DNA from: Candidatus Bipolaricaulia bacterium
GTDB taxonomy: Bacteria > Bipolaricaulota > Bipolaricaulia > JBHIAT01
Assembly (NCBI GenBank): GCA_046758705.1
Contig: JBHIAT010000030.1
Span: 1 to 27,726 of the forward strand
Direction: 5' to 3'
Length of the DNA: 27,726 nucleotides
Below the pieces are notes generated by a model. The model ran no database searches. It had not been told where the DNA came from and saw only the letters and a program-made list of their open reading frames with translations. Shown here in pieces: positions 2,377 to 26,294 of the stretch. Position 1 is the first letter of the stretch. Each line of letters starts with the position of its first letter. The position numbers and the translations under genes are program-made.

Positions 2377-3249
2377 ATGGCGAAACCGATCATCGGCTTG
2401 GCTCTCGGAGGCGGCGGCGCCCGGGGCTTTGCTCACATCGGTGTGCTGCGTGTTCTACTAGAGCATGGAATTCCCATTGACTGTGTGGCAGGTACCAGCA
2501 TGGGAGCGGCCGTCGGTGGTGTGTTCGTCTGCGGACGCGACATAGAGGAGCTGGCGGAGGCGATCAAGGGGGTTGACCTCAAGGAGACGCTCAGTATCCC
2601 TGAGGGACCTACCAAGACCCTACGGCGGCTCCTCGGCTGGACGGTCTCCGAGTACCTGTTTCGGCGGGATTGGCGCTCCCCCCCATCCAAAGCGCAGGCA
2701 AACGCACACGCGATGTGCGAACTGTTCGCCCAATTCACCGGCGATACCCGGTTTGAGGATTTGCGTACCCCGTTCACCGCCGTCGCCGCCGACATTGACA
2801 CCGGTGAGCCGGTCTTCATCCAGGAAGGCCTGATCTGCTGTGCAATCGAGGCGAGCGCCACCGTCCCGATGGCCTACCACCCGGTGGAGCTTGGCGGACG
2901 GTATCTCGTCGACGGCGGCGTCGTCGACCTGGTGCCCATCGATGCCGTCATTGCGATGGGTGCCGATCGGGTCATCGCCATCGATGTCGGCACAGTCCCT
3001 CTCCACGAGGCGAGATCGACCCTGGATGTTTTGATACATACCGATCTCATGGCCCGCCGCCAACTGGTCCAACTTCATGAAGCGCTCGCCCGGGAGCGGC
3101 TGGGGGAGGAGCACGTGGTGATACTCCAACCGGACGTCCAGGGGATCGACTGGACGGCGTTCGATAACATCGACGAGTGCGTCATTGTCGGCGAGCAGGA
3201 GACCGAAAAGCACCTAGACCACATCCGAGTGACAGTTGGACAGACTTGA
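2377..3249 (+). CDS. Patatin-like phospholipase (RssA/NTE family)
   Basis: LALGGGGARG oxyanion loop, GTSMG nucleophile, DGG motif; AGGAG at 2362 supports start 2377 rather than 2140. Confidence 0.92.
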   Translation: MAKPIIGLALGGGGARGFAHIGVLRVLLEHGIPIDCVAGTSMGAAVGGVFVCGRDIEELAEAIKGVDLKETLSIPEGPTKTLRRLLGWTVSEYLFRRDWRSPPSKAQANAHAMCELFAQFTGDTRFEDLRTPFTAVAADIDTGEPVFIQEGLICCAIEASATVPMAYHPVELGGRYLVDGGVVDLVPIDAVIAMGADRVIAIDVGTVPLHEARSTLDVLIHTDLMARRQLVQLHEALARERLGEEHVVILQPDVQGIDWTAFDNIDECVIVGEQETEKHLDHIRVTVGQT

Positions 3250-20475: not shown

Positions 20476-20550
20476 GGGTCTATAGCTCAGGGGAAGAGCG
20501 CACGCCTGATAAGCGTGAGGTCCCTGGTTCAAATCCAGGTAGGCCCACCA
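20476..20550 (+). tRNA. tRNA-Ile(GAT), intact copy (attL side of island)
   Basis: Acceptor GGGTCTA/TAGGCCC, anticodon arm CACGC-CT-GAT-AA-GCGTG, GGTTCAAATCC, encoded CCA. Confidence 0.97.
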
Positions 20551-20621
20551 GAGTGGTTGTTTTTTACTTCCTGACAGGTTTTCAGCAACTTCTCCCTTGA
20601 GCGCTTTGCCTCTCAAAATCC

Positions 20622-20843
20622 ATGCAAAATTGGCCCAGTAAAGCGCTCCCCTATAACCGGGAGAATCTGACCGATCCGACCCAGGACAATCTTACACTGG
20701 AGGAAGCCATCAAACACTTTCTTCTGATGGCTTGTGTTGACGGACGTGTCTACAGAACAATCGAACTCTACAACCAGATTTTTGACAACTATGTAGCGGT
20801 CGATCACAGTTCTATCCCCTCTCGCTCTGTCCCACATGGGTAA
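20622..20843 (+). pseudogene. Probable N-terminal remnant of a tyrosine recombinase/integrase
   Basis: LTLEEAIKHFLLMACVDGRVYRTIELY resembles the integrase SAM-like N-terminus (FL...GRSxxTIxxY); next to attL; no catalytic domain follows. Confidence 0.55.
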
Positions 20844-20847
20844 GGAA

Positions 20848-21129
20848 TCAGAGGGAGCTGGGGAGATCTTCATACGTCTCTGGACCCCTCTTGGGCCGCA
20901 CATGCAGCACCAGGATCATCTGATCCTCGTCATCCACGCGGTAGATAATCCGCCACCGGTTCAACCGGATACGGAAGCGCCCGGGCAAGCCTCGCAGCTC
21001 CTTCGTCTCTAATGGCCGGGGGTCATCAGCCAGAGCCTTTACCAGGCGCCGCGTCCGTTGCCGGTAATCGCCCGGCATCTTTCGCAGTGCTCGCCGTGCT
21101 TCGTCGGTGTATCTAATCCGGTAACGCAC
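20848..21129 (-). CDS. Type II TA toxin, RelE/ParE family
   Basis: YRIRYTDEARRALRKM...PRP...KELRG...FRIRLNRWRIIYRVDD...VLHV; overlaps the upstream antitoxin. Confidence 0.9.
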   Translation of the reverse strand: MRYRIRYTDEARRALRKMPGDYRQRTRRLVKALADDPRPLETKELRGLPGRFRIRLNRWRIIYRVDDEDQMILVLHVRPKRGPETYEDLPSSL

Positions 21130-21379
21130 CCTGGGATTCCAGTGCTTCGATCTCTTTCCACACTTCGTCGTGGGAGTAGGTGCGCTCTTCCCCGCTGGCT
21201 ATACGGGCTTCGATCTCCTGAACGGCCCGCACGTCTTCGGCTTCCTCCAGAGCTTCGGTGACGTACTCCTCCAGGGCGGCACGCACCACATCAGAAACGG
21301 TCTCCCCGCGCAACGCCGCTACGGCTTTGGCCCGGCGCCGCAGGTCCTCAGGGAGCTTGATCGTCAACCTAGCGGTCAT
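21113..21379 (-). CDS. Type II TA antitoxin, ribbon-helix-helix (CopG/RelB-like)
   Basis: RLTIKLPEDL...TVSDVVRAALEEY plus acidic C-terminus; TGGTATAAT extended -10 at 21425-21433. Confidence 0.88.
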   Translation of the reverse strand: MTARLTIKLPEDLRRRAKAVAALRGETVSDVVRAALEEYVTEALEEAEDVRAVQEIEARIASGEERTYSHDEVWKEIEALESQGALPD

Positions 21380-21555
21380 GTCATCTCATCCCCTCATGCA
21401 TAAAACATACTTCTGTATAGCTGTATTATACCACATAATTTGACTCTTGCCCAGGGCAGTGCTGGGATCAGCTCCCCTGGGGCTGGCGATTGAACAGGTC
21501 GCAGTTCATTAATCCTGTCCCTTTCCCCTTGGCTCTCTTAGAAGCTGCTGTCCCT

Positions 21556-21580
21556 TTGGTGTATCAGTTGGTGTATCAGT
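21556..21580. repeat. 12-bp tandem direct repeat
   Basis: TTGGTGTATCAG TTGGTGTATCAG T. Confidence 0.75.
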
Positions 21581-22001
21581 CGGGATCATCGTCTCGTTTC
21601 CGCACTTCGGGCAGACCTTAACCCGTCCGCTCGTCATGTGCCACAGTGAATAGATCAATCCCGGAACGATGTCAGCTAACTGACCGATGGAGGGAAGTCG
21701 GCTTTATTACCAGAGCCCCTTGATCTAGCGAGAGACCCTGTAATCGCCTCCGACGCGGGGGGCTAGGAGTTTATAAGAGAAAGGGGTGATTGACATTTAA
21801 GTTAGCCATCCCTGCCATCCGGGGGCTTATATTCTGCTGGTGGTTGTGGGAATCAACGGCTTAGTCATGCGGAACGATTGGGGGCGGGCCATAGGAGATC
21901 ACCGCCCCCGTGGTTTCTTCAGGAATTGCACGGTTGGATCGGGTTGGGGTATAAAAGATCGAAAGCCAGAGCTATCTTTAATAGCAATGGAGGTTGAGCT
22001 G

Positions 22002-23286
22002 ATGACGACTCGAGTTCAAACTATTGATAAAGCAGCGTCTCACTCGCTTGCCATCTTACAGTTCCTGCTACGCGATTATCATCCGCGCAACTTCACCATT
22101 TGCCTGTGGGACGGCAGCCAGTGGCCGGCCGAGATCGAGTGCCCTGATTTTACCTTGACTCTCAAGCATCCCGGTGCCTTGCGACGAATGCTCCAGAACA
22201 CCACCACCGATCTTTACCTGGGCGAGGCCTATATTTACGATGATTTCGATATCGAGGGGGATATCGAAGCGGTGTTCCCGGTAGCCGACTACTTAATGAG
22301 CCTCGACTGGCGTATTTCTACGCGCCTACGCCTGGGCTGGAAGTTGCTCCATCTGCCCAACAATCGGCCGCCCAGGAGCAATAAGCGGCAAGCCGCCACA
22401 CTGAGCGGAAAACCTCACTCGATAGAACGTGACCGGCAGGCCGTGACCTATCACTATGACATATCCAACGATTTCTACGCCCTGTGGCTCGACCAGTGCA
22501 TGGTTTATTCCTGCGCTTACTTTGCCACTGGTGACGAAGACCTCGACACCGCCCAGGTGCGAAAACTAGACTATCTCTGTCGCAAGATGCGACTGCGTCC
22601 CGGCGAGCGTCTACTCGACATTGGTTGCGGCTGGGGCGGTCTGGTTATGCACGCCGCCCAGCATTACGGTGTGGATGCCCTCGGCATTACCCTCAGCCGC
22701 CCCCAGGTCGAACTGGCCAACGAGCGTATTCGGCAGGCTGGGTTGAGCAACTACTGTCGGGTGGAGGTGAGTGACTACCGTGAGTTGGACGAGCCGGATG
22801 GTTTCGACAAGCTGGTCAGCGTGGGCATGTTTGAGCACGTGGGCGAAACGCTGCTGCCGATCTACTTCCAGCAAGCGTGGCGACTGTTGAAGCCTGGCGG
22901 AGCTTTCCTCAACCACCGACCCACTGCCCACAGGTTCCACCTTTACGGACCGTTACGTCTTTCCTGATGGCGAGTTGGTGCCCATCAACGTAACTCTGCG
23001 TCACGCCGAAGAATCAGGCTTTGAGGTGCACGACGTAGAGAGCCTGCGCGAGCACTATGCCCTCACCCTACGTCATTGGGTACGTAACCTGGAAGCTTGC
23101 CACGACCAGGTGCTGCAGGTGGTCAACGAGCCTACCTATGGTGTGTGGCGGCTATTTATGTCCGGCTCCGCCCATGGTTTCGCTGTGGGGCGGTTGAACC
23201 TCTACCAGGCCTTGCTGGTCAAACCTGACCGAGGCAACAGCGACCTGCCGCTGACCCGCGCCGACTGGTACACCCCCAGTCAATAA
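22002..23286 (+). pseudogene. cfa: Cyclopropane-fatty-acyl-phospholipid synthase, frameshifted near 22917
   Basis: YHYDISNDFY, MVYSCAYF, LLDIGCGWGG, SVGMFEHVG; after FLNH the conserved FTDRYVFPDGELVP continues in another frame. Confidence 0.88.
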
Positions 23287-23313
23287 CAGTCAAACCTGTT
23301 CATTCATTATCAC

Positions 23314-23348
23314 CAGGAACCCGGCGACCTCAAGCCATCGGGCTCCTG
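23314..23348. terminator. Hairpin between convergent cfa and NTF2 genes
   Basis: CAGGAACCCG ... CGGGCTCCTG imperfect stem; no clear U tract. Confidence 0.35.
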
Positions 23349-23387
23349 ACCTATCTCATGAATCTGATCCGGTCTTGTCCGGCCCCC

Positions 23388-23882
23388 CTATGGCTCGGGA
23401 AGCACTGAGGCGTGATCGTGGACGATCAACCACTTCCCTTCAATCTTCTGCAAGACCATTGTAAATCTCCCGGAGAACCCTTCTCCTGGTCCCTCTGGGA
23501 TTTGGAGATTATAAACAAAGTGTCCGGTCAAGATCACCACATCGTCTCCGAGCAACGTGAGTTGTGGTTGTCTAGGAGAGAGGGAGACACTCCCTGGGGG
23601 AAGCTGGGCAAAGAAACCAAGGGTTGCCTTCCAGAACTCCCCTATCTGGCTCCAGCCATCCAGACGAAAGGGCTCGATATCGGAAAAGGCGGTTGCCTCC
23701 TCGGACTGCCACCACAGGGAGGCAAACAGCTCGAAATCCCCGGTATTGAAAGCCTGGATAAATTGTTGTGCGACAGCCAGCACTTCATCCCCCACTGTGT
23801 CTGCAAGGGTCACAGGTGTCACCGAAAACCAAAACCCCAAGGCGATGGTGAACACCAGCCCCCATGTAATTCGCTTCCTCAT
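23388..23882 (-). CDS. Secreted NTF2-like/SnoaL-like (YybH/DUF4440-type) protein, copy A
   Basis: Signal peptide ending TLA; AFNTGD, GWSQI, GRFTMVLQKIEGKWLIVHDHAS; AAGGAGGT SD. Confidence 0.88.
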   Translation of the reverse strand: MRKRITWGLVFTIALGFWFSVTPVTLADTVGDEVLAVAQQFIQAFNTGDFELFASLWWQSEEATAFSDIEPFRLDGWSQIGEFWKATLGFFAQLPPGSVSLSPRQPQLTLLGDDVVILTGHFVYNLQIPEGPGEGFSGRFTMVLQKIEGKWLIVHDHASVLPEP

Positions 23883-23943
23883 CTTTGTTACCTCCTTCTG
23901 GTTTTAAACAAGGCGCTATCGCGCTTCCTAATCCGATCCGGTC

Positions 23944-24447
23944 TTATCCAGGTGGTTCAGGAAGCACTGAGATGTGCAAGTGAACGATCAACCACTTCCC
24001 TTCAATCTTCTGGTAGACTCCCGTAGCCCTCCCAGCGGCCGTTTCCTGTGGCCCCCCTGGGATCTGGAGAGAAAAAACCCAGTGATCGGTAAAGATCGCC
24101 ACATCGTCTCCGAGCAACGTGACCCGTGGTTGTCTAAAAGAGAGGGAGACACTCCCTGGGGGAAGTTGAGCAAAGAAATTAAGTACTGATCCATAGAACT
24201 CCCCTACCTGGCTCCAGCCATCTTGCCGGAAGGGCTCTTCCCCATAAAAGTGGGTTATCTCCTCGGACTGCCACCACAGAGAGGCCATCAACTCGAAATC
24301 CCCGGTATTGAAGGCCTGCCCATATTGTTGTGCGACAGCCAGCACTTCATCCTCCATCGTGTCTGCAAGGGTCACAGGTGTCACCGAAAACCAAAACCCC
24401 AAGGCGATGGCGAACACCAACCCCCATGCAATTCGCTTCCTGTACAT
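23944..24447 (-). CDS. Secreted NTF2-like/SnoaL-like protein, copy B
   Basis: Colinear with copy A, about 77% aa identity by manual alignment; AAGGAGG SD. Confidence 0.88.
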   Translation of the reverse strand: MYRKRIAWGLVFAIALGFWFSVTPVTLADTMEDEVLAVAQQYGQAFNTGDFELMASLWWQSEEITHFYGEEPFRQDGWSQVGEFYGSVLNFFAQLPPGSVSLSFRQPRVTLLGDDVAIFTDHWVFSLQIPGGPQETAAGRATGVYQKIEGKWLIVHLHISVLPEPPG

Positions 24448-25134
24448 CTTGACTCCCTCCTTTAAGTCTGATTTTCAGGCTCTGGGAACCCGCGTAAGGG
24501 TTTCCTCAGGTTTTCTCGTACGATCACCTCCCTTTTATTGTGCGGATCGTTAAACCCGTTCCAAGATGAAGCCGTGGATTTGGAGAATTTACCAATGTGA
24601 GAGAGAAACTTGCAGAAGATGAGCTATACACCGCCATCCACCTTCACCCCCACCTCATTGACAGAATAGCTCAATCGGCAGATTTAGGTTTTCATAGAGG
24701 AGCTATTCAGCTAGTAATTATGATTATTGATCCTATTTCTCACTTCCTCTTAATAATCCTGATCTTTTACGGTTGTATTGTATCATAAGTTATCATAATA
24801 TACAATCGGCCAACTGACCGACAAGGGAAATCGGCCCTATTACTTGGTCACAGGAGACGGATGACATTCTCGTCATGAATCAGGTGATTCTGGGGTCAAT
24901 ATTTGGTCTGCTCAACTGTTCATTTAAGGGTGTGGTCATGGGGAGATTCAGGACATCCCCTTGACAGATATTTTATCAAGCTGATATTCTTGGTTATGCG
25001 AAGGAGGTGGCCGGGGAGTAAGGGGCACTTTCGGAGAAATTACGGGAGATAGAACATCCTTGAATCCCGCTTCCACACAGTACTTTGATTAAACTATGAT
25101 GTTCTTGCACTTATAGCGCTGGCGAAGTGGTGTA

Positions 25135-25548
25135 CTATCGTGACCAGTCTTCGATCGTTAGATCACTTACCTGAGAGAAATCCCGGACGTTACGGGTCAC
25201 CACCGTCGCTCCTGCCGTCAAGGTGATGGCCGCGATGCGTAGATCGTTCGTACCCAAGCGACGATATATCCTTCACATTTGCTCGTACTCTTGAGCTGCT
25301 TGGTCGTCGAAGTCAAGCAAATTCGCATCACAGAGAAATTCGAGGGATCGCCGCAAACCTGCGTAGGCCCATACGTAGCGTTGCACCGGCTGCTTGCGCT
25401 TCAGCAAGGGGAGCCATCCATCCAGAAGTTCCTGGGCTGTGACAAGTGTCACCCAGATTTCGGTGGGCGAATGCACAGCCAAGCGACGGATCACTTCCGC
25501 ATGACCTTGCAGGAGGAGCGAGACATGGTCTGTGTCCAGAATGTACAT
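25135..25548 (-). pseudogene. vapC: VapC/PIN toxin interrupted by one in-frame TGA (25273-25275)
   Basis: MYILDTD...E...; after TGA the same frame gives [45 protein letters not shown]. Confidence 0.9.
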
Positions 25549-25585
25549 GCGTGTTTCCTATACTATGCCTGAGGAATATAGCATG

Positions 25586-25882
25586 CTATTCTTTTGTCCG
25601 ACCCTGGCGTTGAGCTTCACGCTCTTCCTCGATCATCGCTTTTACTTCCGCCCAGAGTGGATTAGATGCCAAGATGCCAGCATGGCGTAGGTAAGGGTTA
25701 TTTTCCCTGCTTCCATTGCTTAACCACTGATGGAGAGCGAAGCGGCTAAAGCGCCATCGGCGGGCGATCTTCTGGGCAGGCACCTCTCCACGGGAAGCGG
25801 CCTCCCGCAATGCTCTGGGGGAAATCTCCAGGAGTTCAGCGGCTTCTTCTAGTGTTAGAATCTCTTTGCTCATATCTCCCAT
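25586..25882 (-). CDS. Excisionase-like (HTH_17) DNA-binding protein with C-terminal tail; probable antitoxin of the vapC
   Basis: ILTLEEAAELLEIS...GEVPAQKIARRWRF; promoter position implies start at 25882 or 25873, not 26032. Confidence 0.8.
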   Translation of the reverse strand: MGDMSKEILTLEEAAELLEISPRALREAASRGEVPAQKIARRWRFSRFALHQWLSNGSRENNPYLRHAGILASNPLWAEVKAMIEEEREAQRQGRTKE

Positions 25883-25891
25883 CTTGTTCAC

Positions 25892-25920
25892 ATTATAGGT
25901 CGTTGAAAGGTAATTATCAA
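25892..25920 (-). promoter_or_regulatory. Sigma70 promoter of the HTH-vapC module
   Basis: TTGATA-17 nt-TATAAT. Confidence 0.65.
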
Positions 25921-26226
25921 GAGTTGAGTTGCACTCGAAAAGCGTTTTCTGGAAAAGACTCTTCGGATGGGAGAAGGTCGAAACCGCAAGGAAAGTATAG
26001 AGTACCAAGCACAAAAATTCGGTATTATCCATCTAAGGAGTACACCCGCTCCCAAAGCAGGCGTACTTCATTCGCTCGGTAGTTCTCTTCTCCTTGACAA
26101 TCATCTCATCAACTTGATACCCTGGGCTATGCCAAGGGGGTGAGACGAGACAGTAAAGCGCTCTTTGGGAGAAATAAGGGAAGATCAAAAATACCCTCAA
26201 AGCCAGTTCTCACCTGAAAAAGGTCG

Positions 26227-26294
26227 TAGCTCAAGGGAAGAGCGCACGCCTGATAAGCGTGAGGTCCCTGGTTCAAATCCAGGTAGGCCCACCA
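26227..26294 (+). repeat. tRNA-Ile fragment (nt 8 to CCA); attR-like direct repeat
   Basis: Identical to 20483-20550 except 26234 A vs 20490 G; upstream AAGGTCG cannot form the acceptor stem. Confidence 0.9.

Follow-up and report, generated by a model that had tools for sequence, protein, structure and literature searches.

The window analysed here, 27,726 nucleotides of DNA from a Candidatus Bipolaricaulia bacterium (contig JBHIAT010000030.1, positions 1 to 27,726, assembly GCA_046758705.1), carries two adjacent minus-strand genes, here called A (23388..23882) and B (23944..24447), that encode putatively exported proteins with an NTF2 fold. The two copies are nearly identical except at residues that probably line the cavity of this fold; selection has thus probably refashioned one of them for a different binding target. 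We favour, with moderate confidence, asymmetric neofunctionalisation of the tandem pair, in which the cavity of B was remodelled by selection and its ligand specificity probably differs from that of A. In this scenario, a 562-bp unit with a signal-peptide-bearing NTF2-fold gene would have been duplicated in tandem in this lineage, inside a tRNA-Ile islet, and both copies would have been kept under strong purifying selection for the fold and for the convex side of the sheet, which may mediate oligomerisation. Replacement of residues of the concave cavity would have outpaced silent change, chiefly in B, such that A retains the cavity of its orthologues and B has been reshaped, with shrinkage on strand 3 offset by enlargement on strands 1, 2, and 4. 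The mechanism would be ordinary mutation and directional selection with compensatory packing, involving neither a targeted mutator nor cassette exchange, and the likely outcome would be two exported binding or catalytic modules that share one scaffold and differ in ligand specificity. This scenario resembles classical neofunctionalisation by positive selection at binding sites in that the ancestral binding residues persist in one copy, those of the other change fast, and the framework is under purifying selection; it differs in that it involves an exported bacterial protein with an NTF2 scaffold, carried on a small islet flanked by tRNA sequence, and that the signal comes from two sequences only.

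The tandem pair and the duplicated unit

Genes A and B are open reading frames (ORFs) of 164 and 167 amino acids separated by a 61-nt spacer (23883..23943, minus strand) that holds the GGAGG ribosome-binding site of A. Alignment and a repeat search indicated that the duplicated unit is 562 nt long and extends from the GGAGG ribosome-binding site to ~30 nt beyond the stop codon, with each copy closed by a 20-nt repeat located in the 3′ flank (23361..23380, with a second, 90% identical copy at 23930-23949). The encoded proteins share 125 of 163 residues with zero gaps (BLASTP). Contigs from three public sequencing runs span the A-B junction with zero differing letters, and a scan for promoters and terminators yielded no signal exceeding the shuffled expectation.

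Codons 1-27 of A (23802..23882, minus strand) and their counterpart in B (24364-24447) read as a cleavable signal peptide in translation, with a TLA|DT motif that follows a basic n-region and a hydrophobic core, which supports the proposal of the first-pass annotation, made from the sequence alone, that these proteins are secreted; their export and cleavage are thus predicted. Helix 3-19 of A has a lower predicted local distance difference test score (pLDDT) in the AlphaFold2 (AF2) model. The leaders of the two genes are nearly the same: over codons 2-28 the proportion of nonsynonymous differences (pN) is 0.033 and that of synonymous differences (pS) is 0.048, compared with a pS of ~0.27-0.29 in the remaining codons. 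The A/B leader (23802-23882, 24364-24467) also recurs in the same genome at C81:1822-1938, C121:2176-2281, and C152:8252-8311 on three unrelated exported proteins, namely a 191-aa protein of unknown family, a HEAT-repeat protein adjoining a BTAD/AAA regulator, and a cupredoxin-like protein. This recurrence is partly at the DNA level (72-90% identity), and the match on C152 extends into 5′ untranslated bases.

A and B adopt an NTF2 cone fold related to CaMKII hubs

A and B are members of the NTF2-like superfamily and are nearest to SnoaL_3 and the CaMKII hub domain. SnoaL_3 (PF13474) is the top Pfam family of both proteins (51.6 bits for A and 53.9 bits for B; cut-off 22), followed by CaMKII_AD (PF08332; 39.2 and 51.9 bits; cut-off 22.1), and their neighbours in the protein atlas carry SnoaL_3 and DUF4440. 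They differ from the SnoaL_3/DUF4440/SgcJ-EcaC group in that both fall below the NCBIfam SgcJ/EcaC cut-off (TIGR02246; 28.8 and 33.8 bits; cut-off 33.95). AF2 models built from a 98-sequence alignment had pLDDT values of 93.4 for A and 94.8 for B, with secondary structure alike in the two: an N-terminal helix of lower confidence, helices at 26-47, 50-55, and 76-92, and strands at 99-110, 115-127, 133-147, and 150-160. The models contain the NTF2 cone, with its three helices and four long strands. In a Foldseek search the best match was the bacterial CaMKII-association-like structure 3h51, followed by CaMKII hubs (E ~1e-10, TM-scores of 0.6-0.85), and CaMKII hubs were also at the top of a PDB profile search (E ~5e-16). 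Pfam, AF2, and Foldseek thus agree on the NTF2/SnoaL fold that had initially been assigned.

The GD, GW, and GKW..H.H.S motifs are common to A, B, and the CaMKII hub and 3h51, as is the cone with its internal cavity, which in the CaMKII hub binds small carboxylates (PMC11400628). In contrast with the hub, which assembles into 12-14-mer rings attached to a kinase, A and B stand alone without a kinase, carry what appears to be a signal peptide, and have F/W122, M/G142, and A/I158 in place of the hub cavity arginines Arg433, Arg453, and Arg469. More generally, PMC3924330 describes a tendency of NTF2-like domains to accommodate small molecules in a shared pocket and states that the superfamily includes secreted, lipid-anchored members that are presumably ligand-sensing. 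The literature that we searched reported no ligand for any secreted SnoaL_3/CaMKII-hub-like member.

Divergence between A and B is rich in multi-base replacements

Of the 163 aligned codons, 38 are replaced and 16 differ only silently, as the first-pass annotation had counted, and the exchanges that it had singled out (GAT/TTG, ATG/GGA, TTG/TAC, GCC/CAC, and ATC/GGG) are all present. Twelve replaced codons differ at one base, 19 at two, and 7 at three, such that 26 of the 38 differ at two or three bases. A total of 87 of 489 bases differ, and the longest identical runs measure 52, 29, 29, 27, and 24 nt. Even neutral evolution of all 163 codons at the divergence of four-fold sites (11/64) would yield only 12.8 codons with at least two differences and 0.83 triple-hit codons, fewer than the 26 and 7 observed (p = 4e-4 and p = 2e-5). 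Replaced codons fall at alternating positions, as had been suspected, with 15 i,i+2 pairs compared with 8.55 expected (p = 0.0048, 20,000 permutations); there was no enrichment of adjacent pairs (11 versus 8.6 expected, p = 0.20). By the Nei-Gojobori method, synonymous divergence (dS) over the whole gene is 0.27 and nonsynonymous divergence (dN) is 0.18, a ratio (dN/dS) of 0.67.

That 69-70% of replaced codons differ at two or three bases, the maximum in the family comparison, with the framework DNA between them unchanged, would fit targeted diversification of the cavity codons by a diversity-generating retroelement (DGR) or some other codon-directed mutator. DGR targets likewise combine a constant scaffold with a variable set of codons in a ligand-binding region. 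This explanation is nevertheless close to refuted, since A and B differ from such targets in lacking a reverse transcriptase, a template repeat, and an adenine-specific pattern. Among the differing sites the base in A is adenine 24 times, cytosine 19, guanine 23, and thymine 21, which indicates no adenine bias. The assembly to which the window belongs (3.7 Mb, 319 contigs, 93.9% complete) contains A and B as the only full-length copies of the gene, yielded no RVT_1 match either genome-wide or in the window, and in a blastn search gave no further partial copy that could serve as a template for the variable region. A classical DGR, which the first-pass annotation had also considered not to be indicated, was therefore rejected, as was a targeted mutator.

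Population data came from Logan contigs of four runs of a single hydrothermal-vent metagenome study, which may include the source sample; none of the public runs listed as containing the sequence was an RNA data set. The contigs of three runs had zero variants over A and B, although contigs hide rare variants. In the fourth run, a low-depth contig (2.9) joins the 3′ end of an A-like sequence to a B-like sequence (joint 23450-24107, side 32, skipping 656 nt); it may derive from a single-copy or differently variable relative. The initial description of the codons as "hypervariable" and of the proteins as a "repertoire" went beyond the evidence: there are only two copies, no variants among the contigs of the three runs, and an A-type cavity that is stable across the orthologues P0006 and P0156 (described below), a combination that points to one-sided remodelling of B rather than continuing randomisation.

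Mosaic gene conversion was also considered. Silent changes in conserved codons occur in 6 of 43 codons next to a replaced codon and in 10 of 82 non-adjacent ones, and only one of the 11 conserved codons flanked on both sides by replaced codons has a silent change, the other ten being identical in DNA. Since silent divergence is not in excess beside replaced codons, these data argue against a conversion-homogenised framework of old paralogues, and mosaic conversion was rejected. The earlier suggestion that framework segments had been converted thus stands only as a hint at the signal-peptide codons, where pS is reduced; the rest of the gene has no silent-site patches of older divergence.

Variable residues most likely line the cavity of the cone

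Cavity positions were mapped by homology to the CaMKII-alpha hub and by the hairpin registers of the model. The ligand contacts of the hub named in PMC11400628 are Tyr369, His395, Trp403, Arg433, Thr435, Arg453, Arg469, and Ser474; hub numbering was fixed using the C-terminal Ser474-Val475 and the mutated positions in PDB titles. In profile and pairwise alignments these contacts correspond to F53, I80 (G81 in the pairwise version), L88, F122, Y124, M142, A158, and E163 of A. A and B differ at five or six of these eight positions, compared with 38/163 overall (p = 0.002-0.003 for six of eight and p ~0.02, by hand calculation, for five of eight). Extending the register of the contacts along the hairpins of the model defined 25 cavity-face and 26 opposite-face strand positions, of which 13 and 5, respectively, are variable (p = 0.020). 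In the cavity set pN is 0.388 compared with an overall pS of 0.229 (p = 0.022), a ratio of 2.0; the corresponding ratio for the opposite face is 0.55. The variable residues thus most likely line the inner cavity of the cone rather than an exposed surface, consistent with the first-pass expectation that they face a pocket.

Because the face sets were chosen after the A/B pattern was known, a test in an independent clade was needed. Among 18 independent metagenomic relatives, the cavity face accumulated 93.3 nonsynonymous and 22.7 synonymous changes (dN/dS 1.06), while the opposite face accumulated 17.0 and 34.0 (dN/dS 0.14), a significant difference between faces (Mann-Whitney p = 0.0003). Positions that differ between A and B were also more changeable in this clade than those elsewhere (dN/dS 0.58 versus 0.33, p = 0.0013), and entropy across 96 family members was 3.06 bits at A/B-variable positions compared with 2.47 bits at the others (p = 3e-5).

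The replacements in B alter the predicted shape of the cavity. Large residues become small on strand 3 (F136A, F140A, and M142G), and small residues become large on strands 1, 2, and 4 (P103F, L118F, G120D, F122W, D156L, and A158I). The acidic cavity residue moves from position 156 in A to position 120 in B. Added up by hand from residue volumes, the side chains of the 13 cavity residues occupy ~1916 compared with ~1935 cubic angstroms, a change of ~1%.

Selection on the cavity is likely

In a pairwise codon site-class model, M2a was favoured over M1a with twice the log-likelihood difference (2ΔlnL) at 36.5 and with an omega of ~19 for 24% of codons, compared with 0.07 for the remainder. Multi-nucleotide mutations can mimic such a signal of excess omega, so we added rates for double and triple hits to the codon model. 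In this model the signal fell to 2ΔlnL = 8.28 (p = 0.016), with omega at ~10 on 27% of codons, and the multi-hit null model has to raise the rate of double hits to that of single transversions. Together with the excess of pN over pS on the cavity face, these results bear out the prior claim of excess nonsynonymous change at the pocket, such that selection on the cavity appears likely, albeit with few sequences behind it.

To place A and B within the family, we compared them with 24 other pairs at a dS of 0.20-0.31, a non-independent set that represents a small number of clades. These pairs had dN/dS values of 0.23-0.71, and multi-hit codons made up 0.17-0.58 of their replaced codons. Two pairs from other organisms had whole-gene dN/dS values close to or exceeding 1, namely 1.03 at a dS of 0.33 (L054/L087) and 0.75 at a dS of 0.51 (L049/L087).

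B appears to be the remodelled copy

An exhaustive search identified a third close relative, P0006, which is 64% identical to A and to which a further protein, P0156, encoded on a 219-kb contig, is 88% identical. From position 30 onward, A and P0006 agree against B at 14 sites, B and P0006 agree against A at 6, all three differ at 16, A and B agree against P0006 at 25, and all are the same at 74. At the 13 variable sites on the cavity face, A matches P0006 nine times and B once (p = 0.0036), and the A-type cavity residues are kept in P0156. Since the cavity of A is thus ancestral and conserved in far more diverged orthologues, B would be the remodelled copy. A search of 5.8 billion proteins with B as the query found no B-type orthologue, the nearest proteins being A and then P0006 at 60%. 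A and B have no conserved polar cavity residue suggestive of catalysis, the Asp at position 156 (A) or 120 (B) being missing from P0006 and P0156.

Remodelling of B weighed against repacking and older divergence

Several results weigh against remodelling of B by selection. The whole-gene dN/dS of A and B is below 1. The selection test compares two sequences, and its significance falls to p = 0.016 when multi-nucleotide changes are allowed. Within the 24-pair comparison A and B are extreme, at a dN/dS of 0.70 and with 27 of 39 replaced codons hit more than once, and do not form a separate class; orthologue pairs of the family at similar dS also reach 0.5-0.7. The cavity positions derive from alignments at 22-25% identity and from hairpin registers rather than from coordinates, and the two face sets were fixed with the A/B pattern already in view. 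The near-constant cavity volume is equally compatible with neutral compensatory repacking and with a ligand of new shape. The 14-versus-6 asymmetry in matches to P0006 is not significant alone (p = 0.115). Lastly, a maximum-likelihood protein tree groups A with P0006 and places B outside (support 99/85 in one tree and 90/84 in another), which would fit an older duplication.

The first group of these observations bears on whether function changed at all. The concave face could fill hydrophobic space and drift roughly neutrally, one change forcing changes in its neighbours and thereby generating multi-base bursts, with relaxed or compensatory repacking rather than a new function as the result. 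The cavity-face dN/dS of ~1.06 in the 18 relatives is indeed neutral and not clearly above 1, the higher family entropy at A/B-variable positions would be expected under such drift, and the dN/dS of 0.5-0.7 in orthologue pairs and the nearly conserved volume of the 13 cavity residues point the same way; in addition, the 13 replaced codons among 25 cavity positions are near the ~10 expected under neutrality by a rough hand estimate. However, cavity pN exceeds pS between A and B (0.388 versus 0.229, p = 0.022), and omega in the site classes reaches 10-19. Furthermore, the cavity of A has been kept at 9 of 13 sites in orthologues that are only 64% identical, which is not drift, and neutral buried residues beside a most-conserved outer face would themselves be unusual. 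We therefore regard repacking without a change in function as unlikely.

The tree bears instead on when the two types arose. If the A and B types had split before A and P0006, and conversion had since homogenised these old paralogues, selection could have guarded the type-specific cavity residues. Consistent with this possibility, signal-peptide codons have a pS of 0.048 in place of ~0.27-0.29, and their leader DNA is found on other genes, which makes a degree of homogenisation at the 5′ end plausible; other branches of the family also contain tandem arrays whose paralogue types are old and conserved. In contrast, silent divergence is not raised by replaced codons, and conversion tracts would have had to skip single codons, given that ten of the 11 flanked codons are identical in DNA. 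No B-type orthologue was recovered from the 5.8 billion proteins searched, and unambiguous synapomorphies are evenly divided, with two for A+B and two for A+P0006. An approximately unbiased (AU) test does not reject the A+B clade (p = 0.115), and a fast-evolving sequence, here B, is expected to be drawn to the base of a tree. An old, homogenised pair thus seems quite improbable, and recent duplication followed by remodelling of B remains the reading that we prefer.

Under this preferred reading, A and B constitute a natural experiment, in which one fold and one outer face were retained and about a dozen cavity residues were exchanged within an evolutionarily brief period, leaving the net volume almost unaltered. 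The NTF2 scaffold is already used by protein designers to build pockets. Should the cavity bind ligands, the two proteins would offer a ready means of identifying specificity residues in the SnoaL_3/CaMKII-hub-like family.

Tandem arrays and inverted conservation recur in the wider family

The exhaustive search returned 404 proteins at E ≤ 1e-3, 40 at ≤ 1e-10, and 2 at ≤ 1e-30, and genomes of class-level relatives had weak matches to A in 2 of 40. Tandem arrays of two to four copies on one strand were present at 18 of the 159 fetched loci with a family match, some of which duplicate one another and many of which lie on contigs of only 1-3 kb. Array members from the other branches belong to long-established, conserved types. 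One of the two copies in the sister clade appears to be a lipoprotein, judging from a lipobox-like LAAC motif at its N-terminus.

Sixteen longer homologue loci (49 ORFs) were scanned for neighbouring genes. A phage-type integrase was present in three (L018, L039, and L086), several loci contained toxin-antitoxin genes or large LuxR/BTAD-type regulators, and no metabolic neighbour was conserved across the 16. At L039, a muconolactone-isomerase-like two-domain protein (2551-3234) is encoded directly upstream of a three-gene array, and large AAA/TPR/LuxR or BTAD regulators lie upstream of the arrays at L010, L023, and L048. These upstream genes may hint at regulated operons.

The arrays at 18 of 159 loci, the carriage of A and B on an islet, the fast evolution of the family, the integrase near homologues in 3 of 16 loci, and the accompanying toxin-antitoxin genes would also suit exported protein binders, such as inhibitors of or immunity proteins against secreted effectors, whose variable surface tracks a protein partner. 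Such a role is very unlikely here. No secreted-toxin gene was found beside A and B, where only cytoplasmic toxin-antitoxin genes are present, or in the 16 homologue loci, and PADLOC, whose library covers anti-phage defence systems rather than toxin-immunity families, gave no match for A or B. In addition, the homology mapping places the variable residues inside the cone, where they are mostly hydrophobic, and not on an exposed surface.

Conservation in a protein normally peaks at its binding pocket, yet in the 18 relatives the cavity face evolves approximately neutrally and the opposite face is nearly frozen, which makes this subfamily worth a structural and biochemical look. The mode of diversification of A and B is not a new one. 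Less common is the combination of inverted conservation across the subfamily with the recurrence, in the family loci scanned, of arrays (18/159) and mobile-element neighbours (phage-type integrase, 3/16). No report of the subfamily's tandem arrays and inverted conservation (variable cavity, constant outer face) was found in the literature searched, part of which did not bear on the family. It is conceivable, if doubtful, that A and B are one case of a widespread class of exported, often tandem, island-borne NTF2 proteins with variable cavities, comparable to repertoires of the odorant-binding or lipocalin type. Equally tentatively, such a class would keep its scaffold and its outer, probably oligomer-forming face fixed, with the cavity evolving fastest and being tuned to capture or neutralise local small molecules.

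A and B lie on a tRNA-Ile islet that looks decayed

The proposal that the pair is carried on an island was upheld by a 68-nt direct repeat of the tRNA-Ile gene. An intact tRNA-Ile(GAU) gene marks the left end of the islet (20476..20550, plus strand; ARAGORN; Rfam tRNA 70.9 bits), and its nucleotides 20483-20550 are repeated with 99% identity at the right end (26227..26294, plus strand) at a spacing of 5744 nt. The right copy does not conserve the 5′ acceptor strand and scored 48.4 bits with the Rfam tRNA model (26222-26291) with no ARAGORN call. The islet body between the repeats (20551..26226) measures ~5.7 kb. No window ORF matched an integrase family in Pfam or NCBIfam, and no contig of the public runs joins across the islet as an empty-site form would.

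Besides A and B, the islet encodes a ParE/RelE-like toxin (20848-21129; Pfam) and a cyclopropane-fatty-acid synthase that is frameshifted into two pieces (21840-22967 and 22975-23286, covering positions 89-269 and 302-393 of the NCBIfam CfaB profile). A VapC/PIN gene is likewise split, its N-terminal ORF (25273-25548) and C-terminal ORF (25135-25257, VapC profile positions 93-130) being in different frames. Upstream of VapC is an excisionase-family helix-turn-helix gene (25586-26032; NCBIfam 36.6 bits, cut-off 28.8). With its cyclopropane-fatty-acid synthase and VapC genes frameshifted, the islet looks decayed, and A and B would be the intact cargo of a decaying insert.

Three minor observations concern the sequence around the pair. 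The split cyclopropane-fatty-acid synthase sequence (21840-23286) is the same in the public-run contigs that extend across it. The excisionase-family gene (25586-26032) is also a weak match to the MADS defence protein MAD1. Just downstream of A, a segment of ~48 nt (23311-23359) at which public-run contigs break is 83-87% identical to sequences elsewhere in the assembly, on six or more further contigs (C16, C201, C229, C162, C78, and C23), and is probably a small dispersed repeat.

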